Positions 4,043-26,084 of a stretch of 64,000 bases of DNA are shown in pieces. The notes beneath the pieces were generated by a model. The model ran no database searches, was not told where the DNA came from, and worked only from the letters and a program-made list of their open reading frames with translations. Every line of letters starts with the position of its first letter. The stretch's first letter is position 1. The stretch is from Cyanidioschyzon merolae (lineage: Eukaryota): NCBI GenBank assembly GCA_000091205.1, contig AP006494.2; one strand, written 5' to 3'. Made by a program: the position numbers and the translations under genes.

Positions 4043-5869
4043 CTAGTGCTCGATGCCTGCTGCCCCGGAAGCACGCGTTATCGAAGTTGCACATCGAAAC
4101 CCTGAAAGCATGAAATCCCGAAGCGCGAGAGCGCGTCCCCAGATACTATCTTCCATGTAGATGACGCGCATCAAGGCGTCGATCACGTCTACTGCTGCGT
4201 GATGTACGGGATACTGCAGCGGCTTTGGAATACGAGTGCGCAGCATCCAGAACCGATCCTGTGTAACACTTTTCATAAGACAGCAGGCGCGCAGCCCCTC
4301 AATACCAGCAAATCGATCGGAACCACTATCTTTCGTACCTCCGAAGGGCAGCGACTGGCATAAATAATTCACGCCAAAATCATTCTCATTCACCATTCCG
4401 ACGAGCAGCTTATTTCGAATCATCGCTGCACGCTTGCGATCAGCAGAGAAGACGCTGCTCCCGAGGCCGTACGCTGAACCGTTCACGATCCGAATTGCCT
4501 CCGCATCACCGTCGAAGGGGGTGATGATCATGACAGGACCGAACACTTCGTTTTGCATGATTCGGCTGTGTAGGGGCACGTCAGTCAAGAGCGTTGGCTC
4601 CCAGTACGAGCGCCCTGCGCGCTTGCCGCCACATAGGAGTCGCGCGCCGTCTTTCACTGCGTCGTTGATCAGTGACTCGAGTTCCCGCAGGGAGGCCTCG
4701 CCCATGGTCATTGCACCGAGATCGACGCCGATACGGAGTGACTGCACGCGCACCTGCATCTCGGCAACGAAACGCTCGTAGCTAGGGCGCTGCACCAGGA
4801 TGCGCTCGATCCCGACACAATTCTGGCCGCTGTTTTGAAAAACACCGCGCATCGCAATATCAAGTGCCTGCTCGAGATCCGCGTCATCACAGACAATAAA
4901 AGCGTCCTTACCGCCGAGCTCCAGGACACAGGGTTTCAGTTGCTCGGCTGCTGCCATGGCCACCTGACGCCCGACTCTCGTCGAACCCGTGAAGAATACT
5001 TTGGCAACACCCTTGTCGACAACGAGCGCCTCGCCGGCGCTGGCGCCGCCAGTGACCAACTGCACCAGTTCCGATGGATGCTTGCAAGCACGAAGCACAT
5101 GCCGCACAAGCTCGACATAGTAGACAGAGCACCAGGAGCTATACTCGCTGCTCTTAACGACGATTGCATTGCCCGCAAACAGGGCCGCTAATATCGGATT
5201 CATGAGGTTGTGGAATGGATAGTTCCACGGCGCAATCGCCGCAATGACACCCAGTGGCTCGAACTGCACCCAGGCGCGTTTATGCATGGTGAGCGGTCCG
5301 ACCGAGCGATACTCGGGAGCCAATGCCCGCTCGCCTTCGCGTAAAAGCCAGCGGATCTTCTCGAGCGTCGTGAGTAGCTCGCCCAGATATGCATCGACGA
5401 ACGTTTTCCCGGTTTCCAGCACGCTAGCCTGCAGGATAGACTCGCGATTCGCCAGAATTGCTTTGCGGAGCGCACGTAGAACTCGGCGCCGCTCAGCAAA
5501 CGACGTCTCTCTCCAGAGTTGCTGGGCATCGGACGCCACTTGAACGCGAGCGCGTACATCTGCCGCACTCTGGTCCAGTACCCATCCTAGCAGTCGACCA
5601 GTTGCTGCCGCCGCGCACCGGTGACAGCGATCGGCTTCGGTTTTCTTTCGACAACAGATGGGTTTTCCGGGTTGATCATCGGCGGTAACAGGAATAAGGA
5701 AAAGGCCGTCCTCCGTGAGGTCCGGCAGGCCCAGTGTCACGCACGGGACGTGCTCTCCGCGTTTGCAGAGCCATCTTGTCAGAATCAAACCAAGCAGCGC
5801 AGACACCAGTGCCGCGATAACGCTCCCACTCGTTAAGGGCAGAGCATGTATGGGTTGGTCAAGGTGCAT
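4043..5869 (-). CDS. Aldehyde dehydrogenase with N-terminal transmembrane segment (ALDH22/MSC7-like)
   Basis: Carries the ALDH catalytic motifs LELGGKDA (Glu) and QNSGQNCVGIER (Cys), and FTGSTRVGR. There is an N-terminal hydrophobic helix. The probable ATG is at 5867-5869. Further upstream, the ORF track's 5' extension reads through the 3' end of the adjacent mobile element. Confidence 0.8.
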   Translation of the reverse strand: MHLDQPIHALPLTSGSVIAALVSALLGLILTRWLCKRGEHVPCVTLGLPDLTEDGLFLIPVTADDQPGKPICCRKKTEADRCHRCAAAATGRLLGWVLDQSAADVRARVQVASDAQQLWRETSFAERRRVLRALRKAILANRESILQASVLETGKTFVDAYLGELLTTLEKIRWLLREGERALAPEYRSVGPLTMHKRAWVQFEPLGVIAAIAPWNYPFHNLMNPILAALFAGNAIVVKSSEYSSWCSVYYVELVRHVLRACKHPSELVQLVTGGASAGEALVVDKGVAKVFFTGSTRVGRQVAMAAAEQLKPCVLELGGKDAFIVCDDADLEQALDIAMRGVFQNSGQNCVGIERILVQRPSYERFVAEMQVRVQSLRIGVDLGAMTMGEASLRELESLINDAVKDGARLLCGGKRAGRSYWEPTLLTDVPLHSRIMQNEVFGPVMIITPFDGDAEAIRIVNGSAYGLGSSVFSADRKRAAMIRNKLLVGMVNENDFGVNYLCQSLPFGGTKDSGSDRFAGIEGLRACCLMKSVTQDRFWMLRTRIPKPLQYPVHHAAVDVIDALMRVIYMEDSIWGRALALRDFMLSGFRCATSITRASGAAGIEH

Positions 5870-5880
5870 CACCTTGACAC

Positions 5881-8316
5881 TACAGTAGTGGCGAGAAGCC
5901 CGCCCTAGACAAGGCGCCGCCAACTAACGTGCAGACGCCTCGCAGTTTTTTTGGACCGGCCATCGACTACTGCTTCCACCTTTTTCTCATATGGTTCGAC
6001 TTTAAGTGATTGTCCAACAAAGTTCCCTCTTGTCAGCTCTGGAGGTCTCGTCTCCAGCACCGCACATTTCCTTATATTGATCGCGGCGATAAAGTCTCGA
6101 TTCAAAAACTCCATACGTTTCTTGCCATCAATGGTTGTGCTAACCAATACGAGTAGCCCTCGAACTTTCGCCATCCTTTCCATTTCCTCTTCCGTCAGCG
6201 GTCCGTGCTTTGCTATATCTTCAGGGCTCCTCTAGCGCCTTTCCATCTCGACCCTTTGAAGTGTACACCCCAGTTCATGGTGTGTAAACGTCGTTCGGAA
6301 CTCATCTACAGGTATCGTAACAAAACGCCTTGTGCACTCCTTGTGCACCCTCGTCGTTGGAGCTGGTGTACACCCTTTTTGTGTCTTCCAGCGCCCTGCT
6401 CCGTACGCTACTACGAGCCTTTGAATTTCATTCTCCTGCAAGGCGCTCAACTGATTGCGAAAATTCGCGAACGCGCGCTGCCTCCCACCGTATAGATTCA
6501 TTCGCAGACGAGCCCACCGGGGCTTGGTATACTCCTCCCACAGCGCATCCCGATGCGCAATGCGAAATTCCATGAACTCCCGAAAAGCTTCAAAGTCCGC
6601 TCCGCGGCTCGTCACCTCGCTCAAAGCTTCCAGGTGCTCTTTCACTCCTGCGTTCCACGTCTCGATTTTCTTCCTCGCATTCCTTATACCGGATTCTCGA
6701 TCGTATCACGCTCTCGAGAATCTCAACAGACGCATGTCTTTCTGACGCAAGTTACCGTCAGCGCCATCTTCCGCACGCTTGGGAGCAGCGATGGCTATGA
6801 TATTCGTATTCCCAGGGTCCGCGCCAACGACAAAGTCGTTATCCTGGACTTTCTGCGTCTCAATACCCGCCTCCTTCTTTTCTTCATGCTTCGTCGCGTC
6901 AACCGTAAAGTCGTTATCCTGTACTTCCTGCGTCGCAGCACCAGCCTCCTCCTTTTCTTCATCCTTCGTGACGGGTGCAGCCGGGGACGGAACTGGACGA
7001 TCTGTCTTCAAGCGCCGATAGTGTACACATATATATGGATACTCCATCGGTTTCGATCACACCAGTGAATACCTTTTGTTTGCTGACTTTGAGACGTTTG
7101 AAATTGAAGATGTTCTTCCAATACGTCTCCCGGTTTTCGCCGGTAAACTCCTCCCTGCTAACATTGAACTCTGGACTGATCTCCCTCATGATGCCACGAA
7201 GGATTCTGGAATCGATAGTCACGAAATGTGACGTGATGTTGCACATTGGAACCACGCTGATGCGCTTACCAATTAGGACAGCCTTCCGTCTCTCCCACTC
7301 TCCATTTGTCTCTTCACTCAGCATCACCTCTGCCTTGCACTCGAGTTCTCGGTCCAGAAACACAAAATAGCGCAGGATGAGGCGATAGTATCTTTCCTGA
7401 TCTTTTTCAGCTCTGATATCTTGTCTGTTGGATTCGCCAGCCCCAGTACAGCACGATGTTCTTGTATCACCGCACGGATTACAGAGGCTTCATTCGTGCT
7501 CCTGCGCGACTTCTTCTTGTCGACGGATTCGATCTCATGTTCACGCTTGCGATGCTTCGTGATGCCATTGATAATCGACCATATCCCCTTGCGAGAGATG
7601 CCAGGGTACAGCGCAGACACGGCGCGTATCATGAATCGTTCGAGATTCATTATCGAATGGTTCCTCAGGTTCGTGAGGTACTTCATCGCCCCATAGTCTT
7701 AAATACCCCAGTCACCCTTGATTCGAATACCCTCGAAGCTGTAAAAGGGATGTTTTTCGTGGAGGGCATCTACTAGCTCATTTTTCCTCCGCGCTTCCTC
7801 TGTACCAAGCATCAGGCGACTAAGAAACGTCTTGTCGCAAAACTCGTCTGGAATCTCGACCGTTTCCATGTGCGTCACGTCTTCGTACATCTCCCTCACC
7901 AAATGCATCAGTCCTAGCGACGCATTGACAATACTCTTCGAGTACGAGTCGACACGTGTTTCGATAGCGTCTCGCAACTTTTCCTTGTAGGGATCCTTGA
8001 TATGTCCAAGAAGAAAGGTTTGCACAACCATCTCGTCGGACAGTTGTCTTTCCCGCAGCCTTCGACGTAGGGCCTCCCCCTTTCGGTCCTTCTTCTCTTC
8101 CTTTTCTTCTGGACTCGGCACTGTTTTTTGTTTTTTTCTGGCAGCCGGCGACCCTGGGCCTCCAGGATCGTCAACTTGCATTTTCATGACTTTCCTTTTT
8201 TGTTTTTTGAAAAAGGACGCCCTTTGAACGCTTCTGTTATATACTGCTAATAATCAATTGAATATTTTTACTTGAGGTTTGAAACAAAATGAACTGAAAA
8301 ACTGTACTTGTCTATA
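5881..8316 (-). mobile_element. TnpB/Fanzor-like (OMEGA-type RuvC nuclease) element, copy 1
   Basis: ~2.4 kb unit, >95% identical to copy 3. It encodes the RuvC-I-like DFVVGADPGNTNIIAIAA motif (ORF 6706..7047) and the RuvC-III RDFIAAINIRKC motif (ORF 5905..6183). Boundaries were set by where copies 1, 2 and 3 stop aligning; the 3' end is ...gggcgggcttctcgccactact(g/a)ta. Confidence 0.7.
5905..8187 (-). pseudogene. Fanzor/TnpB-like nuclease reading frame (interrupted)
   Basis: Collinear ORF pieces: 7699..8187 (N-terminus, basic NLS-like KKQKTVPSPEEKEEKK), 7324..7686, 6959..7363, 6706..7047, 6232..6645 and 5905..6183. Copy 1 has its own TAA at 7696-7698, plus the lesions shared with the other copies. 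Confidence 0.6.
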
Positions 8317-10391
8317 AAGTTAAAGAAAATACAACTTTTACATTAGATCTACATGCTAGAGATCAGGATCACGTTCCCCTTCAACGGCGACATGTGCGTC
8401 GTGTCTCATGCCTGCCTGATCTCCCAGGCGTGCTCACCGAGCGCGATGCAAACTAGTCGCAAACTATTTATCAAAGAACAACTATCTTAAAGCCCCACAC
8501 ATTACGTCCGCCTAAGAGGTCTAGTTTTTCCGGAGAAGCTCTGAAAGTGGGTCAACGCGGGGTGTTCGAGCGACGGCGAAGGAAGCCCACGCCAGGGACC
8601 TTTACCGCAACGAACGGAGGGGCAGAGGCAGTAGCAGCAGAGAATGATGACGAGAGTTCTGAGTAGTCATCCGCCCCTCCGGAAACAACGCTGCAGGTTC
8701 GGGCGCAATTCCTGGATCAATCCTCGGACTCGGGCTCAGTATTACCTCCTACCATGGGTGCCAACCTCAACTTTGGAAACAATCTCGGCGGATGCTTTGG
8801 AAGACGGCTGGCAGTATGTTCACTGCCGAAGCTGGAACAAACGACTTGCCCGCCCATGTGTTTTGGGAGCGGATACGTAGCCGCTGAAAGGGTGGTTCAC
8901 AGAGTATCCCCAGTGGTTGAAGGTTGCTCCACGCGTTCGGCAGCGTAACGGTTGCATTCGAATCGACCTTGACTAGAGTACTTCTGATTCTACGCTAGCG
9001 CTGCGCCAAGCACTCAGTGAACGACTGGAATGCACGAGGCGCTTGTGGCATGTGCACTCACACACCCCGTGGAGGGTGCATCTAAATCGACGACGTATCT
9101 CTCGAGTACCGCAGCACTATTCCCATTCCCGTACGCGCTACGACTCGATAGGTTTCGCATCATGGAATATTTGCGGGATAGCCTCGGAATTGAACTACGA
9201 GATATCGAATTACCAGTACAGTAAAGAGGAACTGATACAAATCGAGGACTCTGCAATAGGAAAAGAGACCCAGCGGGATACGGAGAAGGAGACACAAAGG
9301 CCTCATGATCCACCTAGATGCAAAATAACCAGAGAAAGCAGCTCAGGAAAGAGCCCGAAGAAGACGAAGAAGACCAACAAGAAGAAACAGAAGAATAGAA
9401 AGAAGAGCTCCCGAACGAGCCCATCATGAGTGATCCCCTGAAAGAGCACCCCAGCGGGAACTCAAGAAAGCTGCCGCCAAACTCAATCACCTACTCACAG
9501 CGCTGAAGATCCGAAAAGCCATGCATGCAAGCCTTTAGACCAATTGGCACGCGAGTATGTATATGGGAATCAGAAGATTGCCAGAGAACTGGGACTGCTT
9601 GCACCAGAACGCAACAGTTGCAAACCTCGGTACCTGAAACGACGTACCAAAACTCGGAATGATGAATGCCACCGACTCTATAAGATCGTCAACCGCACCG
9701 CCATACGTGCCAACGCTGGAGACAAGGAAGCGAAAGCAGCGCTACCGGCGCTACAGGCGCAACATGAGGAAGCTATCAAAAGAAAGAAGAAACGTTCCAG
9801 AGAAGACAAACGAGAGGATCGAAACCGCAAAATCGCCTCCCTGACGGAATCTATGCTAGAGAGCACCAACGAAGATGAGACCTGACGCTCCATTCGATCG
9901 AGACTGGACGCACCAGAAAAGTGCTTGGGGCTCACACCAATCGTTCATAAGGAATCGCTGAGGACGGAGAGTGCCTCAGTGAATGAGACCGGGATAGACC
10001 ACGGGACAGAGCTGCATGAAGAAGCAACTGGGCACTGCCAAGACCCAGTCCATTGGTACCAATATGCTGCAGAACTACCGCGCCTCGAACATTACCAGCA
10101 CATGAATCGTTCCAGTGCAAACTACAGATATGATGCGAAAAATATCAATCGTGAAATGAGACAGTGTCGAGCGTCAGCGCACGCAGCACTGCCGCATAGA
10201 CCCACAGCGTCTAGCGACGAGCATCGCCCCAGTCTATCGCACGCGCCGCCGCGAAGATCCGGCACCGCAGGCCGCCGACGTGGGCGTGTCTGCGGCATCG
10301 GCTAGCTTCCAAGCGCCTTCAGCAAGCGCGGCCTCTGCTCCTGTTGCCGCTGCCGCTCGTGGTAAACGTACGTTACCGCACTTTGTGGGGC

Positions 10392-12002
10392 ATGTCGCTC
10401 GTTTTTGATGAGTATGGTAGACCGTTTATTATTTTCAAGGATCAAGACAGAAAGGTCCGGACGAAGGGCTTAGAGGCGATTCGGGCGAACGTTGCCGCAG
10501 CGACGGCCGTATCGCGCACCCTGCGAAGCTCGCTGGGTCCGAACGGCATGGATAAGCTGCTGGTTTCCGCCGACGGTGACGTTACCGTTACAAACGACGG
10601 TGCAACAATTCTGAAAGAAATGAACGTGAGCAATGAAGTTGCGAAACTTATGGTTGATCTGGCAAGCGCACAAGACGATGAGATCGGTGACGGCACCACT
10701 GGCGTCGTCGTGCTAGCAGGGGCCCTGCTCGAGCAAGCGCAACAGCTCCTGGACCGAGGCATGCACCCGTCAAGAATAAGTGACGGCTTCGATCGTGCGT
10801 GCGCGATTGCTGTGGATCATCTGGAAAAGATCGCCCAAGTTATGGAGCACACCAAGGCGGACACGTCACAACTGGTGCGGGCGGCAGTAACTGCGCTCAA
10901 CTCCAAGGTCGTCAAGCGTCATAGTGAGGCACTGGCACACGTGTGTGTGAAAGCGGTGCTTGCAGTTGCGGATCTCGAGCGACGTGACGTGAACTTGGAC
11001 TTGATCAAAATCGAAGGCAAAGTGGGCGGGCGCCTCGAGGACACGATTTTTGTCGACGGCATTGTCATCGACAAGGACATGTCGCACCCGCAGATGCCCA
11101 AACAAATAACCGATGCCAAAATCTGCATCCTGACGACTCCCTTTGAACCTCCCAAGCCGAAGACGAAGCACCGCCTCGAGATAAGCAGCGTCGAGCAGTA
11201 TCGCGAGCTGCAGCATGCTGAACAAGAATACTTCACGAACATGGTTAAACGAGTCAAAGACAGCGGTGCAAACCTGGTTATATGTCAGTGGGGTTTCGAC
11301 GATGAAGCCAATTCGCTCTTGTACCAGAATGGTATCTGTGCAGTTCGCTGGGTCGGCGGTGTCGAGATCGAGCTCATCGCGATGGCCACAGGCGGCCGCA
11401 TCATTCCGCGCTTCGAGGAGATCACTCCTGAGAAGCTCGGCCACGCTGCATCCGTCCGTGAGTTACATTTCGGGACGACACATGACAAGGTCATTGTCAT
11501 CGAAGGGTGCCGTAGCACCCGCGCAGTCACCATTTTGGTGCGCGGTGGCAATAAAATGGTGCTCGAGGAGACCAAGCGCAGCCTGCATGATGCGCTCTGC
11601 GTTGTACGCAACCTCATTCGGGATCAGCGGGTTGTGTGCGGCGGTGGTGCGTCTGAGATTGCTGGCGCTATCGCCGTAGCCGAGGCGGCGGATTGTTGCC
11701 TCGGACCCGAGCAGTACGCGATGCGAGCCTTTGCCGAGGCACTGGACTCGATCCCTATTGCCCTCGCTGAGAACAGCGGTCTGTCGCCCATTGAGACTCT
11801 GTCGAGTGTTCGCGCCCGTCAAATCGCTGAGCGCAAACCGTATTACGGCATCGATTGTCTCGGAATCGGCACGATGGATATGCGTGAGCAGAACGTTTAC
11901 GAAACACTGGAGAGCAAGAAGCAACAATTCCAGCTTGCGACGCAGCTATGTAAGATGATTTTGAAAATTGACGATATGCTCCAGCCGAATTCGTTGAGCT
12001 AA
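10392..12002 (+). CDS. CCT5: T-complex protein 1 subunit epsilon (chaperonin CCT5)
   Basis: Collinear with human CCT5 over its full length: [72 protein letters not shown] and ILKIDD. ATG at 10392; stop is TAA. Confidence 0.92.
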
Positions 12003-12228: not shown

Positions 12229-13632
12229 TTAGTCTTGCTCTGGTGTATCTTCAAGTAGACGTCGAACCTCTTCGGCGAGCATGTCAGCATCTTGGCCGGG
12301 AGGCAGTGTCATGGACTCGGTACCTGCCACGTCGAGAAGATCTTCCACATTAACGTACTGCGAGAGGTCGAAGTCTTCCTCGGGAGCACCCGCTCCTGGA
12401 TGCATGCTTTCTGTTGCCGCCTCTGTATCCATGCCTGGATTGGGCTCGTTCTCATCATCGAGTAAAAGGATGGAGGGGCCTTTCGGACGCGAGTCGGCAA
12501 TGTCCGTCGGCATCGCTGGCGGTCCATCAGGTTGAAGCTGCCGATTGACTGCGGTGTTGCTCGACTCATCCCAAGCCGGTGCTTCGCCGCTCGGCAGGCC
12601 GGTGTCACGCTCCGCGTCGCTTGAGGTGGAGACCACTGCAACCGTCGGGTTCGCGGTGTTCCTCAGGGCCATATTGGCCATCTGGAGCTGCGCCATGAGG
12701 TTGCGAATGAGCTCAATCGATTCGGGGTGAGCGTTCCGTAGCACCAGCGACTGGGACGTGGGCGTCAGCGATTGCGGTTGCTGGCCCTGCAGCGGCGGCG
12801 AGGACGGCGGGTACGACTCCACCACGCTGTCGGTCATGAGCTCCCCGGTATCCCCCTTATACTCAATGCTGCCTATTGAGCGACCCGCTGTGCCTGCCAC
12901 CGGCTCGGTGGGCACGTTCATCAACCGCTTGCGTTTCCGTTCATCCAATTTGATCCCGTGTTGTTGCAGCAGCAACTGGAACGACTGGTAAATGAATTGC
13001 TTCATCTGTTCGACGCTGCTCTCTAGCTGTTGAATGCGTTGCTCACTGTATCGGAGTTTGCGCTCGAGTTCTATTTGGCGATGCCGCGAAGCCAGCAGCT
13101 CCTGCAGAAGCAGCTTCTTGTCGCGGCGGAGCAGCTCTACGTCCGGAGCACTGACGGAGCTATCCGGCCCGAACCCGTAGTTGCCGATCTCAAGTGCTGC
13201 GGTGTGTGGCGGGCTCGACTCTTTCCGCACCAGCGTTCTTGATGGTCGTCGACGCGTCACTTTGGAGAGCCACTCTGGATGATCTCGCACAAAGTACCGG
13301 TTCCCAAACACAAAGTGATCGCTGTCCAGCTTGCGAAAGCCGTATTGGTTCAGTTGTCGAGCGAAACTGGTAAAGTTACTGTGCTTGAAGTAACGCGGCA
13401 GAACCGTCCGGGCGAACTCACTGGGTAAATGAACTTGAAACGAAAGTCCATCGTCCCTCCAGGAGATGAGGTCGTCGGTAGCCGGATCATCGACCATAGC
13501 CCGCAACTTGGTGACAAACGGAGGCATCAGCGCTTTCTCCCACGCCGCCTCGATGGAGGACAACTCACTCGAATCTCGAGGAGGTCGGGAGGCAGCCTCT
13601 CCATGTACACTGTTGGTTACACTCTCTGTCAT
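12229..13632 (-). CDS. Heat shock transcription factor (HSF-type DNA-binding domain plus coiled-coil HR-A/B)
   Basis: The HSF DNA-binding domain is present: FVTKLRAMVDDPATDDLISW, YFKHSNFTSFARQLNQYGFRK. It is followed by a heptad-repeat oligomerisation region (LLRRDKKLLLQELLASRHRQIELERKL). ATG verified at 13630-13632. Confidence 0.85.
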   Translation of the reverse strand: MTESVTNSVHGEAASRPPRDSSELSSIEAAWEKALMPPFVTKLRAMVDDPATDDLISWRDDGLSFQVHLPSEFARTVLPRYFKHSNFTSFARQLNQYGFRKLDSDHFVFGNRYFVRDHPEWLSKVTRRRPSRTLVRKESSPPHTAALEIGNYGFGPDSSVSAPDVELLRRDKKLLLQELLASRHRQIELERKLRYSEQRIQQLESSVEQMKQFIYQSFQLLLQQHGIKLDERKRKRLMNVPTEPVAGTAGRSIGSIEYKGDTGELMTDSVVESYPPSSPPLQGQQPQSLTPTSQSLVLRNAHPESIELIRNLMAQLQMANMALRNTANPTVAVVSTSSDAERDTGLPSGEAPAWDESSNTAVNRQLQPDGPPAMPTDIADSRPKGPSILLLDDENEPNPGMDTEAATESMHPGAGAPEEDFDLSQYVNVEDLLDVAGTESMTLPPGQDADMLAEEVRRLLEDTPEQD

Positions 13633-14048
13633 GGTTTGTGTTCAAGAAAGAAAAGTTTCCCCGGAAACCCAAAACAATCAACGAGTAAGAGGGTATCGAA
13701 TAACGTCAAGATGTTCGCCGCTCGGGAGCTTTCAACTGGATTCTGTTCCGAGCGTGCTGCGTGCAATCCACTGTTTTTTCTCAGGGTAGCGCAAGAGATC
13801 GAAATCACGATGCAAAGTATCTTATGGAGCTGGGATGGGTTGCCTGTAGGATGTATATTCTTTAGTGAAGTGCCCATGGAGGACTGCATTCATCGTTCAG
13901 GTCAGTCATAGCTCAGTACGCATATGGTTGAGGAACACTGAAAGAATGTAGCGTATGCGGTCCGCGTAAAAACTGATATTCCTTAAAGACAGTTTGCGGT
14001 CAGTGGTAGAAAACGAACAGTTCATCATCTTATGGAAAGCAAAAAGCG

Positions 14049-14640
14049 ATGACAGTAGCCACGACGGGCATCCCTGTTTCTCAACAGCTTGTGCGTCTGG
14101 TCATGAAAACACTGAGAGACAGTCGGAAAGACAGAGTCATCGTTCAAGCATGGCCATCTGCCACTGAAATTGCAATGATAGCGTTCCTGGAAGCTCGCGA
14201 TTGGCATAAAGCACAGAAACGTCGGTTTATTTTCTCAGTTGATGGTGCTTGCTTCGGACGAAAAGGTCGGAGCGTATATGGATATTCGCATAGCAGGTAG
14301 CCTATTGAATGTACGATCGAACTCAAAAAGAACGATGACATCATCTGTTCTGGCGGGACGGATTCATCGGCGGCCTCAGTTTCGATCGTAGAGAAGGCTC
14401 ATCGAACAGCACCCATTTCGTCGAACCATTGTCGACGTTTCCCTGGCGTCTGGCGACGTTTTGCTAATGGACAACGCGGTATTTCATCAGTCCCCTTGCG
14501 TTCGCGGTTTTGCCGATGCTTTCGGGGAAGAGAGCTGATTTACATTCGCCCTTATTCCCCGTGGTTAAACCGCATCGAAGGAGCGTTTTCTATCGTAGAA
14601 AGGAATGATCTCTGCATTGGGTGAATCGCTGATGCGTTCA
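14049..14640 (+). pseudogene. Tc1/mariner (IS630-like) DDE transposase remnant
   Basis: Frameshifted pieces carry the DDE_3 catalytic motifs. RRFIFSVDGACF matches the first D (consensus iFsDEs.f). LLMDNAVFHQS matches the second D (consensus DNAp.H). PYSPWLNRIEGAFS matches PYSPDLNPIE..WS. No intact ORF and no clear TIRs were found. Confidence 0.5.
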
Positions 14641-14719
14641 GCACACGGTGACACACCGGGGCACATGTCGTCTCTCTTCCGCAAGTGATTCACCCTGAGG
14701 GAAGCTTCTTACCTGGGGG

Positions 14720-17087
14720 CATGAAGAAGTGTGTTCTATTTCAAAAATAAACAAGCCAATGGAAAGCTATCGACATGCAGGTCGGGGATCCTGGAGGGCC
14801 ATCTTCGCCGGGTTCGGCGAAGAAAACGGAAAACAATACCGATCCCAGGGGAACAAGAGAAGGCGAAGAAGCACAAGCAGGAAGCCAGGCGTCAAAAGCA
14901 ACTAGAAAGACGACAACACCGCGAGATTTGAGTGAAAGCTTGTCTTCTGAGACATACCAAGGATTCGTACAAGCAAAATTCACAAGAGGCTGTCAGAATC
15001 CTTGTCGCGTCGTACTCCAGGAGGGAACATTAGGCTTCTTTAGGACTCATGCATTTGCTGAAGGAGATGTACGACAACGTGCCGCATATGGAAACAGTCG
15101 ATATTCCAGAGGAATTTTTCAACAAGACCTTTATTCGTCACCTGACGCTTGGCACAGGGGAAGCGCCGAGGAGAAATGAACTGGTGCATGCCCTCCATGA
15201 AAATCATTCCGAGTACCGCTTCAACGGTGTTCGATGCAAGGGTGACTAGGGTATGTACACCTACGAAGCGATGAAGTACCTCACGAATCTGAAGAACAGT
15301 ACGACCATGAACCTCCAACGTTTCATGATACGCGCCATCTCTGCGCTGTACCAGGGCCTCTCTCGCAGAGGGATACGGGCCATCATCGACGGCATCACGA
15401 ACGATAGTACGAGTGAACAGGAGACCGAATTCGTCAAAGAGAAGACATCACGCAGGGGAAAGAATGAAGCTTTTGTGATCGGTGCAGCTATTCAAGAGCA
15501 TCGTGAAGTCTTGGGGCTTGTCAACCCAGCAGAAATGGTATCAGATGTGAAAAAAGATGAGGAATGATGCTCTCCCCTCAACCTGTGCTATTTCGTATTC
15601 CTGAACCGAGAACTCGAACGCAAGGCGGAGACGGAGCAAAGTGAAAAAAAAGAAGAGACAGACAGACAGACGGACAGACGGAAGGCTGTGCTGCTGGAGA
15701 AGCGCTTCAACGTCGATCCGTTGTCCAACATCAAGTCATATTTTGTGACAATCGACTCCAAAATCCTTTACGGCATCATGAGGAAGATCAGTCCAGAGTT
15801 CAATGTTAGCAGGGAGGAGTTTACCGGCGAAAACCGGGAGACGTATTGGAAGAACATCTTCAATTTCAAACGTCTCAAAGTCAGCAAACAAAAGGTATTC
15901 ACTGGTGTGATCGAAACCGATGGAGTATCCATATATATGTGTACACTATCGGCGCTTGAAGACAGATCGTCCAGTTCCGTCCCCGGCTGCACCCGTCACG
16001 AAGGATGAAGAAAAGGAGGAGGCTGGTGCTGCGACGCAGGAAGTACAGGATAACGACTTTACGGTTGACGCGACGAAGCATGAAGAAAACAAAGGAGCGG
16101 ATCCTGCGATGCAGAAAGTCCAGGATAACGACTTTGTCGTTGGCGCGGACCCTGGGAATACGAATATCATAGCCATCGCTGCTCCCAAGCGTGCGGAAGA
16201 TGGCGCTGACGGTAACTTGCGTCAGAAAGACATGCGTCTGTTGAGATTCTCGAGAGCGTGATACGATCGAGAATCCGGTATAATGAATGCGAGGAAGAAA
16301 ATCGAGACGTGGAACGCAGGAGTGAAAGAGCACCTGGAAGCTTTGAGCGAGGTGACGAGCCGCGGAGCGGACTTTGAAGCTTTTCGGGAGTTCATGGAAT
16401 TTCGCATTGCGCATCGGGATGCGCTGTGGGAGGAGCATACCAAGCCCCGGTGGGCTCGTCTGCGAATGAATCTATACGGTGGGAGGCAGCGCGCGTTCGC
16501 GAATTTTCGCAATCAGTTGAGCGCCTTGCAGGAGAATGAAATTCAGAGGCTCGTAGTAGCGTACGGAGCAGGGCGCTGGAAGACACAAAAAGGGTGTACA
16601 CCAGCTCCAACGACGAGGGTGCACAAGGAGTGCACAAGGCGTTTTGTTACGATACCTGTAGATGAGTTCCGAACGACGTTTACACACCATGAACTGGGGT
16701 GTACACTTCAAAGGGTCGAGATGGAAAGGCGCTAGAGGAGCCCTGAAGATATAGCAAAGCACGGACCGCAGACGGAAGAGGAAATGGAAAGGATGGCGAA
16801 AGTTCGAGGGCTACTCGCATTGGTTAGCACAACCATTGATGGCAAGAAACGTATGGAGTTTTTGAATCGAGACTTTATCGCCGCGATCAATATAAGGAAA
16901 TGTGCGGTGCTGGAGACGAGACCTCCAGAGCTGACAAGAGGGAACTTTGTTGGACAATCACTTAAAGTCGAACCATATGAGAAAAAGGTGGAAGCAGTAG
17001 TCGATGGCCGGTCCAAAAAAACTGCGAGGCGTCTGCACGTTAGTTGGCGACGCCTTGTATAGGGCGGGCTTCTCGCCACTACTATAC
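14720..17087 (+). mobile_element. TnpB/Fanzor-like element, copy 2 (chimeric: divergent 5' third)
   Basis: From ~15785 to 17087 it is near-identical to copies 1 and 3. From ~14720 to 15785 it is only ~70-75% identical at the protein level (MHLLKEMYDNVPHMETVDIPEEFF vs MHLVREMYEDVTHMETVEIPDEF). A (GACA)n microsatellite sits at 15655-15690, just upstream of the ~15785 junction. The 3' end is ...ttctcgccactactata. Confidence 0.65.
14775..17062 (+). pseudogene. Fanzor/TnpB-like nuclease reading frame (interrupted)
   Basis: ORF pieces 14775..15179, 15049..15249, 15253..15567, 15688..16008, 15920..16261 (GADPGNTNIIAIAA), 16283..16735 and 16784..17062 (RDFIAAINI). Stops are in-frame at 15565-15567, 16259-16261 and 16733-16735. 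Confidence 0.6.
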
Positions 17088-17157
17088 ACCGCTGCCGTCG
17101 TTCGACTTAGAACGGCTTTTGGTATTGGCGGTGGTACAGCGGCCTTGCCTCGTGTTT

Positions 17158-18084
17158 ATGGCAACGAGCGTTTCGGAAAGCGAGTTGCAACTGCTTCCGC
17201 ACTGGCTTTCGTGTATCCATGCGAAGCGGTCAACCTGGACGTGTTCCCAAGACTATGCGCGGTTCGTTCGGCTCTTGCGGGATATCTCCTTGGAGCTCTA
17301 TGTGGCGCGCAACCAGCCCAACGTGCTCGTTCAACTCGCACGTTACGGTTCAGCGTGCACACGGGTTGTGAACGATCTTATCACGGTCTGGAGTGTTCCG
17401 CTTCTACACGAGAGCGTTTCCAGGGCGGTGATTCGGTTTCTAGTGGTTTGTCAGACCGGCAGCGGACCAGAGCAAGTCAAGAGGCGGGCTCTGGCCTGGG
17501 CGCGACACCTGCTGCGACTCGCTGTCTCTCCAGCGATCAACGCAACCTTTATCGATGAGGGCTTAGGTTCAGCTCGAGTTGTGGATGAACTTTGCACTGT
17601 TATCGGGGCCATGGGTTGCCAGGCGCGCATACCAGCTGAACTTGGCGTTCTGATTCCATCGCTCATTCAGGGTGCATGCTGTGCAGACCTTGTTGCTGCT
17701 CTCGTGCCGACGATTGCGGCAATGCTCGAGTCGCAAGCGACCAGTCCCGCATGGCGTCATGCCGTTCGCTGCGCATTCACCTGGGAAGATGCGGAAACGA
17801 AGTACTGTGCTTTTCGCGACGGGTTGTCGGCGACTCTGCAAAATATGCTCCTCGCGGCAGACGCGCAGCTCTTGTGCCAGTGCCTCCAGTCCCCGGAGGC
17901 ACTACTCAAAACACCGCTGGATCATCTCAGCGAGCGATTCGATCACATTCGCCTCTTCTTGCGTTTACAACATGGAGCGGATCCGGATACCAAGGCATCT
18001 GCTGACGACGTCAATACAGTCTCGACGCAGAACCAGAGCGGACCGGATCTCGCAACGACGCCTCGAGCAGGAACGATGACCTGA
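17158..18084 (+). CDS. Hypothetical protein (no recognised domain)
   Basis: Long ORF with GC-rich codon usage. The first ATG lies downstream of the element end. The ORF track's 5' extension (17044-17157) runs through the element's 3' terminus and is not host sequence. Confidence 0.3.
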   Translation: MATSVSESELQLLPHWLSCIHAKRSTWTCSQDYARFVRLLRDISLELYVARNQPNVLVQLARYGSACTRVVNDLITVWSVPLLHESVSRAVIRFLVVCQTGSGPEQVKRRALAWARHLLRLAVSPAINATFIDEGLGSARVVDELCTVIGAMGCQARIPAELGVLIPSLIQGACCADLVAALVPTIAAMLESQATSPAWRHAVRCAFTWEDAETKYCAFRDGLSATLQNMLLAADAQLLCQCLQSPEALLKTPLDHLSERFDHIRLFLRLQHGADPDTKASADDVNTVSTQNQSGPDLATTPRAGTMT

Positions 18085-18594: not shown

Positions 18595-19026
18595 TCATTC
18601 TACTGGATTCGCGATATACGGTTTCATCAGTTTCATGAAGTGGATATCGAATAGCTTGCATCGAATAGGCATGTCCTGTACATAAAAAGGGTTTTTTAAC
18701 GCATAGTCGGCGTAGAGGAGATGAAGTCGCCGCAAAATTCCCAGTAAGATTTCATCCGTGACTTCCGGGGTTGCAATCGCCACGAACTGTATACCCGTTA
18801 GCGGCTGATAAAGCCGCAGACGAAACGTTTTCGCTTCTAACGATGTTAGTCCAATATCGTCTAAAATATCAACTGGTGAAACCTGTCGTGAGATCTGCTG
18901 AACGCTGTGCAGTGTCGAGGCCAGTCGAAGGCACTCGTTCAAAGGATGCACCTGTGAGCCTTGAAACTGGGCGCTGTAGATTAAGCCTCCGGACCTGTTT
19001 ATGATAAACACGGTGTAAATCGGCAT
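18595..19026 (-). CDS. TRAPPC1: TRAPP complex subunit 1 (Bet5/sybindin-like longin fold)
   Basis: 143 aa. MPIYTVFIINRSGGLIY ... FRLRLYQPLTGIQFVAIATPE ... LYADYALKNPFY fits the Bet5/TRAPPC1 family in both length and motif order. ATG verified. Confidence 0.75.
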   Translation of the reverse strand: MPIYTVFIINRSGGLIYSAQFQGSQVHPLNECLRLASTLHSVQQISRQVSPVDILDDIGLTSLEAKTFRLRLYQPLTGIQFVAIATPEVTDEILLGILRRLHLLYADYALKNPFYVQDMPIRCKLFDIHFMKLMKPYIANPVE

Positions 19027-20362
19027 ATCAGTATCCAGTCGGCACAGTGACTGTGCCTCTTCACCAGTGACGGGCTCTTGACGAAAACCGAAGCACCAGG
19101 TACAGTGCTCGACCGCGCCGCTGCAGCACGCAGCGGGCCAACACTGTCAGAGAGTTTCGACGTTGACGTTCGCGCCGAGGCTCGCCAGCGCGCATGATGC
19201 ACGCTCGTCATCTGTTCATTCGTGTTTTGTATGTTTATTCATGAACATATGAAGGCAGTATCTGGTCCAGACGCGCATGGCCTACCCATGTCCGATCGAG
19301 GTCGCGAAACCTTGTTCAATGAATGAGATCGAGTGGACGAAGCCTTTAAAGCCCCAGATGCGTCGATGCTGACAGCTAGCTGGGCAGAGGCCGTCGTTCA
19401 CCTACAGATGCTTCTCCGCTCGATAAGCGAGCGATCAGTCCTCCCGTCAGACTCAGAAAATAGAGGCAGCCACTGTTGGGGTACAACGCGAACCGTGAGC
19501 TCCGTTCCGCAACGCTGGATGCACTGCCGCCGCTGACGCCATGCGGCAGGAGAACGGCTCTTCGTTGCGTTTAGAGGCGGCGCCTGAAGAGTTCGCGGTA
19601 TCTGCGTAGCGCACCGATCAAGCAGGGATCCCTTGCGTAGATCCACAGAATACAGATGTTTGATGGTGTCGGAACGGTGGATCTTAGCCAGTGCCGCCCG
19701 GAGATGTGAAGAAGGTACCTGCTCGGAGAGCGCTTCCACGATGTACTGCAGTCAGATGGATGCCTGGAATGCAAGGTTCGGAAAAATGATCGGTTTTATG
19801 AACGCAACAAAGACTCGCCAATATGAAAAATGCAATTGACTACGAATTTTCCGGTGATTTCGTGAACGCGTCCGTGTGGAATACATCCTATTCATGCTCG
19901 AGTTTGGGATGCAAACAGCAGCGGTTGGTGCATATCCAGAACGTCCACCAAGGGAATCCATCTGATCTTCCTCACTTACAGGATATACATACGGCCAGCG
20001 ATGAGGTCCATCGGATTCATACGTCTGGCTGCTTTCATCTATGCGGTGTAGACACGCTGGACAATGAAGCTTCTACTCCAAGGTGTCGCTTATGAGCCCT
20101 AGAGCCACTGCAACGAAGCTGCTCTTGTCCGGACTTGCAACCCAGCGCAACCCAATGGTCAGCGTCCACTAGAATCCGACACAGCAGCCCGTTACCCGCA
20201 GACATCAGAATGGAAGCGTCTCGCTGCAGGACGATGGGCATGCGCCGCAGTCTTGCCAATGAGCCGGATCAATCGCCGCATCCGTAGAACAAAGAACAGA
20301 GACCAACTACCAACTAGCAACGAGATAACGATTTCTTTCGCCATCTACGATAAACGTTAAAA

Positions 20363-20850
20363 TGAGGAAAAGTTTCCTCGTTGGCGAAAGTTTACCTTAC
20401 AGGCGGAAGGTCCCGCGAGCTGAACGAGTGTGCCCGGCGAGTGCTTCATGCGACTCTACAGAGGCAGATGCCAAAGTAAGATATGAGCAGCAGCTCATCG
20501 TAACGCAATGCTTTCTGGGAATAGGAGCAGGACGCTGCGTCTGGGCGTCGCCCTTGTCGCAGCGGACTCCTCGTATATCGCTTCGCAGTGCCGCAGACAG
20601 TACGTCTGTCTGCGCAGCTCGCAGGCTCCCAGAATGATCATGAATCCAGACCCGGTATCGGGTGAAGCATTCCTCGAGCCGAGGCCCTCAGTGGTATAGC
20701 AAAGCCGTTCGAGCTCCATGAACTATCTGCTCCAGCGGTTCAAGCGCAAAGGTGGATGATTAGGGTAGGTACGAGGCACACACGATAGGACGTATGAAAC
20801 GACCAAAATATCCGAGAAGAAGTATAGGTAATGTAAATTGGAGGTAGGTG
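20363..20850 (+). repeat. Dispersed ~470-bp repeat family R2, copy A
   Basis: Shares the core (t)taccttacaggcggaaggtcccgcgagc and the 3' portion ...cctcgagccgaggccctcagtggtatagc...gataggacgtatgaaacgacc with the copies at 26085-26552 (-), 28140-28386 and 32288-32715. Confidence 0.6.
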
Positions 20851-21071
20851 CTTCATCACGGACGCTTTCCAGAAAGCCGTTATCCTTTCCGAATTCTAGG
20901 ATCCATGGTCAATGGAAACGTCTTGTCAATAAAAAAATCGCGCTCAATGGGCGCACCCCGGAGATCGGGCAGTCAACTGACGCGATGCGCGTGCCGTTGT
21001 TGAAGGGAAACTCAATTGGGATCAGTAACGTGTTGTTCAGCTGTGAACGTCGGATATCGGTCCAGGCCATA

Positions 21072-23497
21072 GCAAAGTACAGTCTTTCAGTTCGTTTTTG
21101 TTTCAAACTTCAAACAAGTCCAGTCAAGTGTTTTTTTGCAGTATATAACAGCAGGGTTCAAAGAGCGTTCTTGTTCAAAAAAAAAGAAAGCTATCAAAAT
21201 GCAAGTCCACGATGCTGGAGGCTCAGTGTCGCCGGCTGCTAGAAGAAAACAAAAAACAGTGCCGAGTCCAGAAGAAAATGAAGAGAAGGAGGACTGAAAG
21301 GGGAGGCTCTACGTCGAAGGCGGCAAGAAAGACAACTGTACGACGAGATGGTGGTGAAAGCTGGTCTTCCTAAACATATCAAGAATCCGTACAGGGAAAA
21401 GTTGCGAGACGCTATCGAAACACGTGTCGACTCGTACTCGAAGAGTATTGTCAATGCGTCGCTAGGACTGATGCATTTGGTGAGGGAGATGTACGAAGAC
21501 GTGACGCACATGGAAACGGTCGAGATTCCAGACGAGTTTTTCGACAAGACGTTTCTTAGTCGCCTGATGCTTGGTACAGAGGAAGCGCGGAGGGAAAATG
21601 AGCTAGTAGATGCCCTCCACGAAAAACATCCCTTTTACAGCTTCGAGGGTATTCGAATCAAGGGTGACTGGGGTATTTACAGCTATGGGGCGATGAAGTA
21701 CCTCACGAACCTGAGGAACCATTCGATAATGAATCTCGAACGATTCATGATACGCGCCGTGTCTGCGCTGTACCCTGGCATCTCTCGCAAGGGGATATGG
21801 TCGATTATCAATGGCATCACGAAGCATCGCAAGCGTGAACATGAGATCGAATCCGTCGACAAGAAGAAGTCGCGCAGGAGCACGAATGAAGCCTCTGTAA
21901 TCCGTGCGGTTATACAAGAACATCGTGCTGTACTGGGGCTGGCGAATCCAACAGACATGATATCAGAGCTGAAAAAGATCAGGAAAGATACTATCGCCTC
22001 ATCCTGCGCTATTTTGTGTTTCTGGACCGAGAACTCGAGTGCAAGGCAGAGGTGATGCTGAGTGAAGAGACAAATGGAGAGTGGGAGAGACGGAAGGCTG
22101 TCCTAATTGGTAAGCGCATCAGCGTGGTTCCAATGTGCAACATCACGTCACATTTCGTGACTATCGATTCCAGAATCCTTCGTGGCATCATGAGGGAGAT
22201 CAGTCCAGAGTTCAATGTTAGCAGGGAGGAGTTTACCGGCGAAAATCGGGAGACGTATTGGAAGAACATCTTCAATTTCAAACGTCTCAAAGTCAGCAAA
22301 CAAAAGGTATTCACTGGTGTGATCGAAACCGATGGAGTATCCATATATATGTGTACACTATCGGCGCTTGAAGACAGATCGTCCAGTTCCGTCCCCGGCT
22401 GCACCCGTCACGAAGGATGAAGAAAAGGAGGAGGCTGGTGCTGCGACGCAGGAAGTACAGGATAACGACTTTACGGTTGACGCGACGAAGCATGAAGAAA
22501 AGAAGGAGGCGGGTATTGAGACGCAGAAAGTCCAGGATAACGACTTTGTCGTTGGCGCGGACCCTGGGAATACGAATATCATAGCCATCGCTGCTCCCAA
22601 GCGTGCGGAAGATGGCGCTGACGGTAACTTGCGTCAGAAAGACATGCGTCTGTTGAGATTCTCGAGAGCGTGATACGATCGAGAATCCGGTATAATGAGT
22701 GCGAGGAAGAAAATCGAGACGTGGAACGCAGGAGTGAAAGAGCACCTGGAAGCTTTGAGCGAGGTGACGAGCCGCGGAGCGGACTTTGAAGCTTTTCGAA
22801 AATTCATGAAAGTTCGCATTGCGCATTGGGATGCGCTGTGGGAGGAGTATACCAAGCCCCGGTGGGCTCGTCTGCGAATGAACCTATACGGTGGGAGGCA
22901 GCGCGCGTTCGCGAATTTTCGCAATCAGTTGAGCGCCTTGCAGGAGAATGAAATTCAGAGGCTCGTAGTAGCGTACGGAGCAGGGCGCTGGAAGACACAA
23001 AAAGGGTGTATACCAGCTCCAACGACGAGGGTGCACAAGGAGTGCACAAGGCGTTTTGTTACGATACCTGTAGATGAGTTCCGAACGACGTTTACACACC
23101 ATGAACTGGGGTGTACACTTCAAAGGGTCGAGATGGAAAGGCGCTAGAGGAGCCCTGAAGATATAGCAAAGTACAGACCGCTGACGGAAGAGGAAATGGA
23201 AAGGATGGCGAAAGTTCGAGGGCTACTCGTATTGGTTAGCACAAGCATTGATGGCAAGAAACGTATGGAGTTTTTGAATCGAGACTTTATCGCCGCGATC
23301 AATATAAGGAAATGTGCGGTGCTGGAGACGAGACCTCCAGAGCTGACAAGAGGGAACTTTGTTGGACAATCACTTAAAGTCGAACCATATGAGAAAAAGG
23401 TGGAAGCAGTAGTCGATGGCCGGTCCAAAAAACTGCGAGGCGTTTGGACAACAGATGGAGACGTTTCGCCTGGGGCGCGTTCGCCGCCTCTACTGTA
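21072..23497 (+). mobile_element. TnpB/Fanzor-like element, copy 3
   Basis: The 5' end aligns with copy 1 from ...at|agcaaagtacag, and includes a TATA-like gcagtatataacag at 21141-21154. Up to 23449 it is near-identical to copies 1 and 2. The last ~45 bp is a divergent (~65% identity) but homologous version of the 3' terminus, ending ...cgccgcctctactgta. Confidence 0.7.
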
Positions 23498-23507
23498 CCG
23501 CTGGTGA
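21202..23507 (+). pseudogene. Fanzor/TnpB-like nuclease reading frame (interrupted; ~760 codons)
   Basis: Pieces: 21202.. (MQVHDAGG..., then a copy-specific 1-nt deletion and TGA), 21348..22055, 22016..22420, 22332..22673 (RuvC-I-like DFVVGADPGNTNIIAIAA at 22542-22595), 22695..23147 (Cys/His-rich RLVVAYGAGRW...GC...C...HHELGC), and 23196..23507 (RuvC-III RDFIAAINI at 23280-23306). Confidence 0.65.
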
Positions 23508-23710
23508 CACCAACGTTTTTCTTTTGAAAGACGTTCGTTGTCAGCGGTGTGCTCGCTGCGCTTTCGCAGCCGATTTTGTGACCCGAACGGCTTTATCGCC
23601 ACTGGGGTGCGGCACCGTGCCCGGTAGCGCTTGTGGGCACTGTTCGAAGCTGTCCGGTGTGTCCAGTGCGGCTTTTATTCTATGAGAATACGCGTACGCA
23701 TAGGAGAGTG

Positions 23711-25546: not shown

Positions 25547-26084
25547 TCGCTGCAGCGCATGAATCCACAGTCGAGGTCTCGTGGCTCGCGGAGCGTGCCC
25601 TCGAAGCCGCGCACTGACGGCCGGGTCTGTCCCGTGACGCCCATCTGCGAGCGACGCAACAAGCGGACACATGTCGACGCGCAATAGCCGCAGATGCACC
25701 TGGCAATGATCCGGACACCGAATATCGCGCCCAAGCTGAACGCATCACCTGAAGCGAACTTGTTCGATGCGAAAGATGTAGCAGCCAGTTGTATGCCGGT
25801 GCTTGCGCATCCAACCATCCAGCCATCCAACCATCCAGCACAGATGCCCATTGCTGCGCTGCGATCGGCAATGCTAGGCGAAAAGCGCGTGCTCCGCCGA
25901 GCCTCCACGTGCGATGGCGCCTGCTGGTGGGATCTCTGGAGCAGCGCCCTGCTGCGGTGCCCTGTCGTTGCCTGCTGGTTTTTTCAGATGACAAAACGTT
26001 TCCATTGACCATGGATCCCTGAAGTCGGAATGGATAATGGCTTTCGTGAAAGCGTCCATGATGAAGCGCCTTCCCTCAAGTTCC

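Follow-up and report, generated by a model that had tools for sequence, protein, structure and literature searches.

Polar placement of a Fanzor1 repeat at host gene starts in the alga Cyanidioschyzon merolae

Three copies of a Fanzor1 repeat upstream of co-oriented host genes

The DNA analysed here is a stretch of 64,000 nucleotides (nt) from contig AP006494.2 of Cyanidioschyzon merolae (assembly GCA_000091205.1; hereafter the window), which contains three copies of a repeat with a Fanzor1-type gene. The window has ~55% G+C and long intron-less open reading frames (ORFs), and its Pfam matches comprise aldehyde dehydrogenase (ALDH), TCP-1, HSF, GcpE/IspG and Brix together with a weak bZIP match. 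The initial annotation had placed each copy directly upstream of the start of a host gene and in the same orientation as that gene. This arrangement was indeed found for all three copies, although their description as full-length did not stand: the Fanzor ORFs are broken and the repeated blocks extend further in the 5′ direction. The element cores, the co-oriented host genes and the divergent partners of these genes are the following.

5881..8447, minus strand: core of copy 1, Fanzor1 element (CMe-1A type) with a broken Fanzor ORF (self-BLAST, end alignments)
14727..17086, plus strand: core of copy 2, Fanzor1 element, pseudogene (self-BLAST, end alignments)
20937..23497, plus strand: core of copy 3, Fanzor1 element (self-BLAST, end alignments)
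4043..5869, minus strand: ALDH host gene (Pfam Aldedh, E=2.8e-125; the 608-aa protein P0192 is 99% identical)
17158..18084, plus strand: gene with a product of 308 amino acids (aa), from the ORF list, co-oriented with copy 2
23711..25546, plus strand: bZIP host gene (Pfam bZIP_1, E=1.5e-4, under the curated cut-off), co-oriented with copy 3
10344..12002, plus strand: TCP-1 chaperonin gene (Pfam), divergent partner of ALDH across copy 1
12229..13632, minus strand: HSF gene (Pfam), divergent partner of the 17158 gene across copy 2
18595..19026, minus strand: Sybindin-type (TRAPP) gene, divergent partner of the bZIP gene across copy 3

The cores of all three copies terminate in ...CCACTACTRTA, and a coverage map against 80 related loci delimits the whole repeated blocks to 5878-10088, 13729-17139 and 20284-23554 (3.3-4.2 kb, with 80-87% identity to the related loci). 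The ALDH start codon (5869-5867 on the minus strand) lies 11 nt beyond the right end of copy 1, in agreement with the ~12 bp given before. The earlier distances of ~70 bp from copy 2 to the ATG of the 17158 gene and of ~215 bp from copy 3 to the bZIP ATG hold when measured from the core (71 nt from 17086 and 213 nt from 23497, respectively), but they overlooked a 3′ tail of the element, beyond which gaps of ~20-25 nt and ~157-160 nt are left. Two ORFs that seemed to begin in the element and continue through a host gene (4043..5923 and 17044..18084) turned out to be TTG-start artefacts, which exist because a mechanical ORF list extends each frame back to the preceding stop codon; in the family as a whole, host ATGs are distributed 12:8:5 over the phases relative to the end of the element. 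The co-orientation of three out of three copies in the window has, by itself, a p value of 0.125.

Comparison with orthologues in a related species supports all three start codons. Residue 1 of the bZIP protein aligns with the start of its orthologue on contig L086 (MEG[DE]...), homology between the 17158-gene product and its orthologue on contig L081 (44-49% aa identity) sets in 5 codons past the ATG, and the ALDH protein has an N-terminal membrane helix ~14 residues in, an architecture that recurs in its orthologue. A Pfam scan of the 17158-gene product gave no match. An exact look-up of the 608-aa ALDH product returned no record and no entry named after C. merolae was present among 120 listed ALDH homologues; a product 99% identical to this ALDH was called in four metagenome samples. 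The reference annotation may use a different ALDH start or omit the gene.

In the related species (ALDH 76% identical at the aa level), contigs L081 and L086 contain all three intergenic sites without the element. The gene order is kept (Brix, proteasome, ALDH, TCP-1, HSF, gene X, Sybindin, bZIP, GcpE), and all three insertion intervals are divergent, with two promoters facing each other. The empty TCP-1/ALDH site has ~507 bp between the start codons, the empty HSF/gene X site (L081) measures ~700 bp and the empty Sybindin/bZIP site (L086) 1.33 kb; the Sybindin-bZIP interval of C. merolae (4.68 kb) amounts to ~1.4 kb plus a 3.27-kb element. Nucleotide alignment of empty with filled intergenic regions did not yield exact insertion points, as the two were too diverged. 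The window junction of copy 1 is found identically in the independent metagenome contigs L082 and L083, and contigs from four independent samples of the same species as the window break within the copy 1 repeat. The Sybindin-type gene product (18595-19026) matches a protein of C. merolae strain 10D with 100% identity, and the remaining genes have their best matches in red algae, so that the window comes from C. merolae or a near-identical strain.

The right end of the element and its hairpin tail

We examined 71 right ends, which represent 41 non-allelic sites. Homology across these ends extends to ...CCACTACTGTA, and copy 1 stops there, at 5881. About three quarters of the copies carry a further tail of 45-55 nt after this core terminus, consisting of a CACnnnnGnCG linker that is semi-conserved, a hairpin of 10 bp that comes in two flavours (flavour 1, CGTTCGACTT(T)(C/A)GAACGGCG; flavour 2, AACGTTTTTC-TTTT-GAAAGRCGTT) and a G/T-rich run, past which the flanks are unique. 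The features at the three right ends in the window are listed below.

17087..~17135 (17133-17139), plus strand: tail of copy 2, flavour 1 (CACCGCTGCCG, hairpin GTCGTTCGACTTAGAACGGC, G/T-rich run)
23498..~23552 (23550-23554), plus strand: tail of copy 3, flavour 2 (linker, hairpin AACGTTTTTC-TTTT-GAAAGACGTT, CGTTGTCAG)
5858..5878, no strand assigned: perfect 9-bp inverted repeat GTCAAGGTG-ATG-CACCTTGAC with the ALDH start codon in its loop, identical in L082 and L083

Homology of copy 2 to many non-allelic copies reaches 47-53 nt beyond CTACTATA. Because the hairpins never occur without the element in ~1 Mb, the tail belongs to the element, and the same observation rules out that the hairpins are a pre-existing target motif upstream of genes. 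Copy 1 showed no tail homology and is missing the 3′ hairpin tail. Partial or complete loss of the tail is seen in 8 of the 41 copies, mostly with the host ATG directly after the remaining end. One possibility for the inverted repeat at the tail-less junction of copy 1 (5858-5878) is a scar of fold-back repair, another a hairpin with a regulatory role.

Placement of the family relative to host genes

From the window junctions, the initial annotation had proposed either an insertion preference or a co-option of the 3′ end of the element, and the family-wide survey supports a bias of this kind: among 38 further non-allelic insertions, taken from the best 80 of 224 matches, no lack of enrichment upstream of genes or of orientation bias was seen. 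When genes are called from an ORF length of 120 aa upward, the closest gene past the right end is co-oriented with the element in 29/38 loci (p=0.0008), and in 32/41 when the window is included (p=0.0002); raising the cut-off to 200 aa gives 29 co-oriented versus 12. The start of the co-oriented gene lies at most 101 nt from CTACTGTA in 17/29 cases. Measured from the end of the tail, the first ATG is found within 52 nt in 16 of the 29 co-oriented cases (window included), nine of which are at 0-15 nt, and this pile-up has a p value between 2e-9 and 4e-3 against null rates of 0.1-0.3. Oppositely facing genes are hundreds of nt away from the right end.

Where both neighbours were called (ORFs of at least 200 aa), 11 contexts were divergent and 2 convergent, and the tandem ones were divided into 4 co-oriented and 4 anti-oriented, the divergent share (11/21) having a p value of 0.006 against an expectation of 0.25. 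Within the divergent contexts, the right end is nearer to its gene than the left end is to the other gene in 10/11 loci, with median distances of 34 versus 658 nt (Wilcoxon p=0.003). Copies thus sit preferentially in divergent intergenic (promoter) regions and do so with a polarity of right versus left end, and this residence largely accounts for the co-orientation. The right end lies 0 to ~50 nt from a co-oriented start codon in more than half of the co-oriented cases, whereas hundreds of nt separate the left end from the gene on its side. For the genes at these right ends, all DNA upstream of the ATG, and hence the 5′ leader, is element-derived.

All ten downstream ORFs tested were ordinary host genes, encoding phosphoglucomutase, a GTPase, an FAD oxidoreductase, KTI12, a triose-phosphate-type transporter (TPT), M18 aminopeptidase, a ProA-like dehydrogenase, an amine oxidase-type flavoprotein, EAP30 and glutaredoxin. 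Since the Pfam domain begins at residue 1-15 in KTI12, EAP30 and the TPT transporter, the first ATG is the true start in these three genes. The KTI12 ATG is at +52, 6 nt beyond the tail, the TPT ATG likewise at +52, and the EAP30 ATG 17 nt after CTACTGTA.

More degenerate copies are nearer to the ATG (Spearman 0.45, p=0.013), and among the relatively intact copies, with an ORF of at least 430 aa, 9/12 are co-oriented. Solo copies of the TE-N2 repeat, which served as a control, also reside in divergent regions, but at 139-525 nt from gene starts (small n).

The repeat encodes a Fanzor1 homologue that has decayed in the window

The repeat carries one gene, which encodes a homologue of TnpB-like RNA-guided nucleases of the Fanzor1 type. 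A profile built from 45 relatives matches Parasitella Fanzor1 (PDB 9cf0, E=1.7e-21) as well as the Spizellomyces (8gkh, 8.7e-15) and Guillardia (9cer, 1.4e-8) proteins, and an exhaustive profile search recovered 2129 cluster representatives with E of at most 1e-3. The 45-sequence profile was alone in succeeding here, as PDB searches with the repaired protein (phmmer) and with a 9-sequence profile were without a match. A match to PF07282 (Cas12f1-like TNB domain) was obtained for 7/45 family members; a Pfam scan of the element ORFs gave none, and the intact relative P0001 had only a sub-threshold match to PF07282. An AlphaFold2 model from the 9-sequence alignment was unusable (mean pLDDT 34).

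Hallmarks of Fanzor proteins are a DPG motif and an alternative glutamate beside the zinc-finger position (PMC10711439). The copies carry both, together with a RuvC-III motif of the RDxNAAxN type, and thereby the RuvC triad; D484, E656 and D725 are invariant or nearly so in the family alignment. The protein is homologous to the studied Fanzor1 proteins (SpuFz1, 8GKH; PpFz1, 9CF0; GtFz1, 9CER; Saito 2023, Xu 2024) and has in common with them the DPG RuvC-I motif, the glutamate near the zinc-finger position, RDxNAAxNI and an N-terminal basic stretch. Unlike these proteins, the window copies are pseudogenes and the zinc-finger cysteines are mostly missing; unlike in the studied systems, no target-adjacent motif (TAM) or guide could be defined for the C. 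merolae element. The Fanzor gene extends nearly to the right end of the element. Fanzor/TnpB elements normally encode a guide RNA (ωRNA) at this end. The conserved 3′ end and the last part of the ORF overlap, at the position from which the ωRNAs of Fanzor1 elements are encoded and read on into the flank. The description of the 3′ end given above (terminus, hairpin tail and tail-less eroded junctions) is a first anatomy of this end, needed for locating the ωRNA, the guide and TAM, and the transposition mechanism.

The Fanzor ORFs of all three window copies have two nonsense codons and two frameshifts in common. The stops are a TGA within 'RFSRA*Y' and a TAG within 'MERR*RSP'; in copy 3, where the ORF remnant spans from the ATG at 21199 to ~23507, they are the in-frame TGA at 22671 and TAG at 23145. 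The GADPGNTN, VDEFRTT and NRDFIAAINI motifs are still present in each copy. P0001 (752 aa) has R and Q where the window copies have stops, and since intact relatives encode R/Q at these positions, the stops are C-to-T nonsense mutations. Introns as the reason for the in-frame stops were ruled out by the CGA and CAG codons that intact relatives have there. All three window copies are accordingly pseudogenes.

Copies 1 and 3 are 94% identical overall (self-BLAST), with 98% across 2.1 kb and 73% across the final 70 nt, and copies 1 and 2 are 97% identical across the 3′ 1.4 kb and ~78% in the 5′ half. This mosaic identity, combined with the common inactivating mutations, argues for gene conversion among old neighbouring copies and against recent transposition. 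The three copies are dead, and conversion has made parts of them more alike.

The Fanzor ORF contains a 75-bp tandem repeat (6820-6969, 15998-16147 and 22410-22559), which encodes (A/T)TKHEEKKEAG..Q.VQDNDF.V. This repeat is present as two units in the window copies and as four in P0001, and forms a variable acidic insert directly ahead of the RuvC-I DPG motif.

Interpretation of the polar placement

We propose that an insertion persists when sense transcription leaving the element at its Fanzor/ωRNA end can take the place of the promoter and leader of the host gene, and that the host spacer is deleted afterwards. We give this reading a probability of about one half. The element would first be transcribed in sense up to and over its right end, whether from the 3′ end of the Fanzor mRNA, from an ωRNA unit or from a start site near the right end. 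An insertion between a host promoter and its ATG would then be tolerated only when the element reads into the gene, and insertions in the opposite orientation or at the 3′ ends of genes would be purged by selection, the genome being compact. With transcription coming from the element, the host spacer would be useless and be deleted, sometimes along with the tail, until the right end meets the ATG.

Several observations fit such a course. Because all DNA upstream of the ATG comes from the element, the host transcripts would have to begin within it, and a start near the right end is the simplest option, as a start far upstream would leave the host ORF behind 2-3 kb full of ATGs. For Fanzor/TnpB elements, RNA is expected to run across the right end, as established for the family (Saito 2023, Jiang 2023). 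Such sense transcription would lead only toward the right-end side, so that survivorship could account for the polarity. Erosion of the spacer is supported by the tail-less junctions with an ATG, by the inverted repeat at copy 1 and by the correlation of degeneracy with distance. Promoter activity or read-out at the right end is thus a candidate function suggested by geometry.

More tentatively, and at somewhat less than even odds, the right end could be an outward-reading unit that now acts as promoter or 5′ leader for many housekeeping genes, in a stronger form with integration coupled to transcription start regions in a fixed polarity. Candidate leader-donor copies make up at least a third of those sampled, which would correspond to several dozen genes genome-wide if this were true. 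Outward promoters of bacterial insertion sequences (IS; e.g. IS10 pOUT and ISAba1) and promoters or 5′ UTRs (untranslated regions) derived from eukaryotic transposable elements (TEs) likewise have an element end directly upstream of, and co-oriented with, the gene that is driven, and orientation counts in them as well. Unlike the IS outward promoters, which drive selected resistance genes, the present case concerns a eukaryotic host and dozens of housekeeping genes, and the activity is suggested by geometry. If the proposal is correct, a TnpB-family element has become part of how host genes are expressed in a eukaryote whose genome is among the most streamlined, which could explain why 5% of the C. 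merolae genome is tolerated as this repeat.

A number of points weigh against the proposal, those at the sequence level in particular against a selected, sequence-specific promoter. RNAalifold found no consensus structure across 40 right ends, an Rfam scan of the window gave no match, and a hand-picked candidate closing helix (CAGTAGTG/CACTACTG) was paired in 81% of cells but without compensatory changes. ATG triplets are not depleted in the final 118 nt plus tail, and conservation of the final 150 nt does not exceed that of the interior, nor is it higher in gene-adjacent copies than in others (Mann-Whitney p=0.77). The survey is also a sample drawn from metagenome contigs and not from an annotated genome, with gene models that are simple longest-ORF calls. 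Under a pessimistic, length-weighted null of 0.65, the co-orientation of 32/41 has a p value of 0.05 and that of 29/41 a p value of 0.28. Finally, the tandem contexts are split 4:4, so that no pure orientation filter is visible there (small n).

The absence of a selection signature at the right end is what would be expected if the pattern were set at insertion, with the machinery integrating at gene 5′ ends or transcription start regions in a fixed polarity. Such polar targeting, for which single-stranded or R-loop DNA exposed by transcription (with strand choice of the IS200/IS605 type) or promoter-bound factors are conceivable routes, also fits the tight docking of the right end (nine cases at 0-15 nt from tail to start codon), the enrichment of divergent promoter regions (11/21) and the co-orientation of relatively intact copies (9/12). 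We nevertheless regard it as less likely than the proposal above, though as a serious alternative to it. No target motif or target-site duplication (TSD) could be defined, the flanks being unrelated, no terminal inverted repeats (TIRs) were found and the element contains no transposase. Moreover, the distance to the ATG shrinks as copies degenerate, deletions after insertion are visible at the tail-less junctions, the tandem contexts show no orientation preference, and the host genes would still be left promoterless, so that element-derived transcription is needed anyway. The P element, mPing, Tf1, Hermes and Ty1/Ty3 are also enriched in gene 5′ regions, possibly in nucleosome-free stretches, but they usually insert tens to hundreds of bp upstream of start sites, for the most part with weak polarity and by known integrases; the C. 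merolae element has its right end 0-50 nt from the ATG, a clear polarity and no transposase of its own. Targeting and survival through outward transcription are not mutually exclusive, and the data are compatible with a preference as well as with co-option.

The even tandem split, the marginal orientation count at the ~0.65 null and the residence of solo TE-N2 repeats in divergent regions would all be in line with a generic safe haven, in which TEs of a compact genome settle in the longer divergent regions, co-orientation follows automatically and the element end has no special role. We consider this improbable, since it explains neither the polarity (right end nearer in 10/11; 34 versus 658 nt) nor the crowding of start codons into the first 52 nt after the tail (16/29, with p=0.004 at a null rate as high as 0.3), nor how essential genes are expressed with their ATG 4-24 nt from a 3-kb insert. 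That the gene adjacency was merely inherited or artefactual, because the copies arose by local segmental duplication or assembly error, seems very improbable and is already contradicted by the evidence. The three copies do lie within 18 kb, with inactivating mutations in common and 97-98% identity over 1.4-2.1 kb; yet their flanks are unique, no two of them agree in both 5′ module and 3′ tail, the related species lacks the element at each of the syntenic sites, the junctions recur in independent assemblies, and the mosaic identity fits gene conversion between old copies.

Relation to the published C. merolae repeat

The repeat in the window is CMe-1A and equally the 253-copy WSV486-like repeat of ~3.2 kb without TIRs, as matched by the published descriptions. 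CMe-1A was reported from C. merolae with ~150 copies of ~3 kb, no TIRs and an undetermined TSD, the 5′ 635 bp being a separate repeat, TE-N2_CMe (Bao and Jurka 2013, PMC3627910). Nozaki et al. 2007 (PMC1955436) described a repeat of 3.2 kb, present in 253 copies, whose WSV486-like ORF is truncated; in their account it makes up 5% of the genome and is 'distributed randomly' and transcriptionally active. The window copies agree with CMe-1A in their host, in their size of ~3 kb, in the single Fanzor1 ORF, in the lack of TIRs, in the ~80-87% similarity of copies with mostly truncated ORFs, and, for copy 3, in a ~635-650-bp 5′ module that also exists alone (TE-N2_CMe).

The published accounts of CMe-1A give no target, TSD or 3′ end anatomy. 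The present analysis adds a defined right end with a 45-55-nt hairpin tail in two flavours, several alternative 5′ modules with TE-N2 in either orientation, and the polar placement of the right end at host start codons in divergent promoter regions. We found no report of a position bias relative to genes in the Fanzor literature that was searched, including PMC3627910 and PMC1955436, and the polar docking at start codons thus appears to be undescribed; it contradicts the published 'random distribution'. For C. merolae, a model alga with an extremely reduced genome, a repeat previously called randomly distributed and of unknown class is thereby turned from a 'junk repeat' into a concrete hypothesis, namely promoter/leader donation or polar gene-start targeting by a Fanzor element, which is directly testable as C. 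merolae is genetically tractable.

Left ends, 5′ modules and further repeats in the window

In contrast to the constant right end, the left end is heterogeneous: at least four different 5′ modules attach to the core at one point, and TE-N2 is found there in either orientation. The modules in the window are the following.

8448..10088, minus strand: 5′ module of copy 1 (megablast 86-88% to L011, L036, L037, L031, L005 and L009; coverage map)
13729..14726, plus strand: 5′ module of copy 2, a different repeat of ~1.07 kb (68-71% to L067, L069 and other loci; coverage map)
20284..20936, plus strand: 5′ module of copy 3, 653 bp, a repeat of the TE-N2_CMe type (~650 bp; repeat family, PMC3627910)

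The copy 1 module belongs to junction class 'b', is repeated upstream of the element at other loci and stops ~300-350 nt from the TCP-1 start codon. The copy 2 module begins 96 nt from the HSF start codon (13632), and its matches in L067 and L069 adjoin the Fanzor gene upstream. TE-N2-like copies are found elsewhere in the window at 25973-26580 (minus) and 32204-32859 (plus).

A TIR search across the copies yielded only inconsistent matches at chance level, and a TSD could not be defined because the 5′ ends are heterogeneous. Ends of the Helitron and IS200/IS605 types share with this element the lack of TIRs and of a recognisable TSD, a TnpB-family passenger gene, a hairpin ~10-15 nt before the 3′ terminus, and constant 3′ with variable 5′ ends. 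Unlike in Helitrons and IS200/IS605 elements, no Rep/helicase or Y1 transposase was present in or beside the copies, and, unlike in Helitrons, 5′-TC or CTRR-3′ termini were not recognisable, the exact element termini being undefined.

TE-N2 adjoins the left end of the element in many loci, in either orientation. Within the window, a nest of repeats at 25859-28509 contains an 87-bp direct repeat (25859-25945 and 27082-27168) around the inverted TE-N2-like copy at 25973-26580 and a 430-bp 5′ fragment of the Fanzor element (26649-27082), followed by a 1.3-kb module (27163-28509) that is located directly upstream of the element at other loci. The solo TE-N2-like repeat at 32204-32859 has the divergent GcpE gene 260 nt away on one side and a co-oriented 203-aa ORF 445 nt away on the other; this ORF (33305-33916) includes seven 18-bp tandem repeats (33523-33684) and had no Pfam match.

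A 387-bp direct repeat (48916-49302 and 55172-55558; 97% identical, 6.26 kb apart) surrounds a DnaJ gene (51317-52807). An identity as long terminal repeats was ruled out, given the DnaJ gene and the absence of a reverse transcriptase between them. Further low-copy repeats, at 34241-35041, 40770-41601, 55616-56316 and 29310-30085, match the flanks of a few related loci and partly match each other (40837-41401 with 56316-55745 at 65%; 34244-34402 with 41915-41757). On contigs L040 (two insertions), L076, L047 and L002, two Fanzor elements lie within a few kb, some of them head to head, which suggests clustering or nesting of copies.

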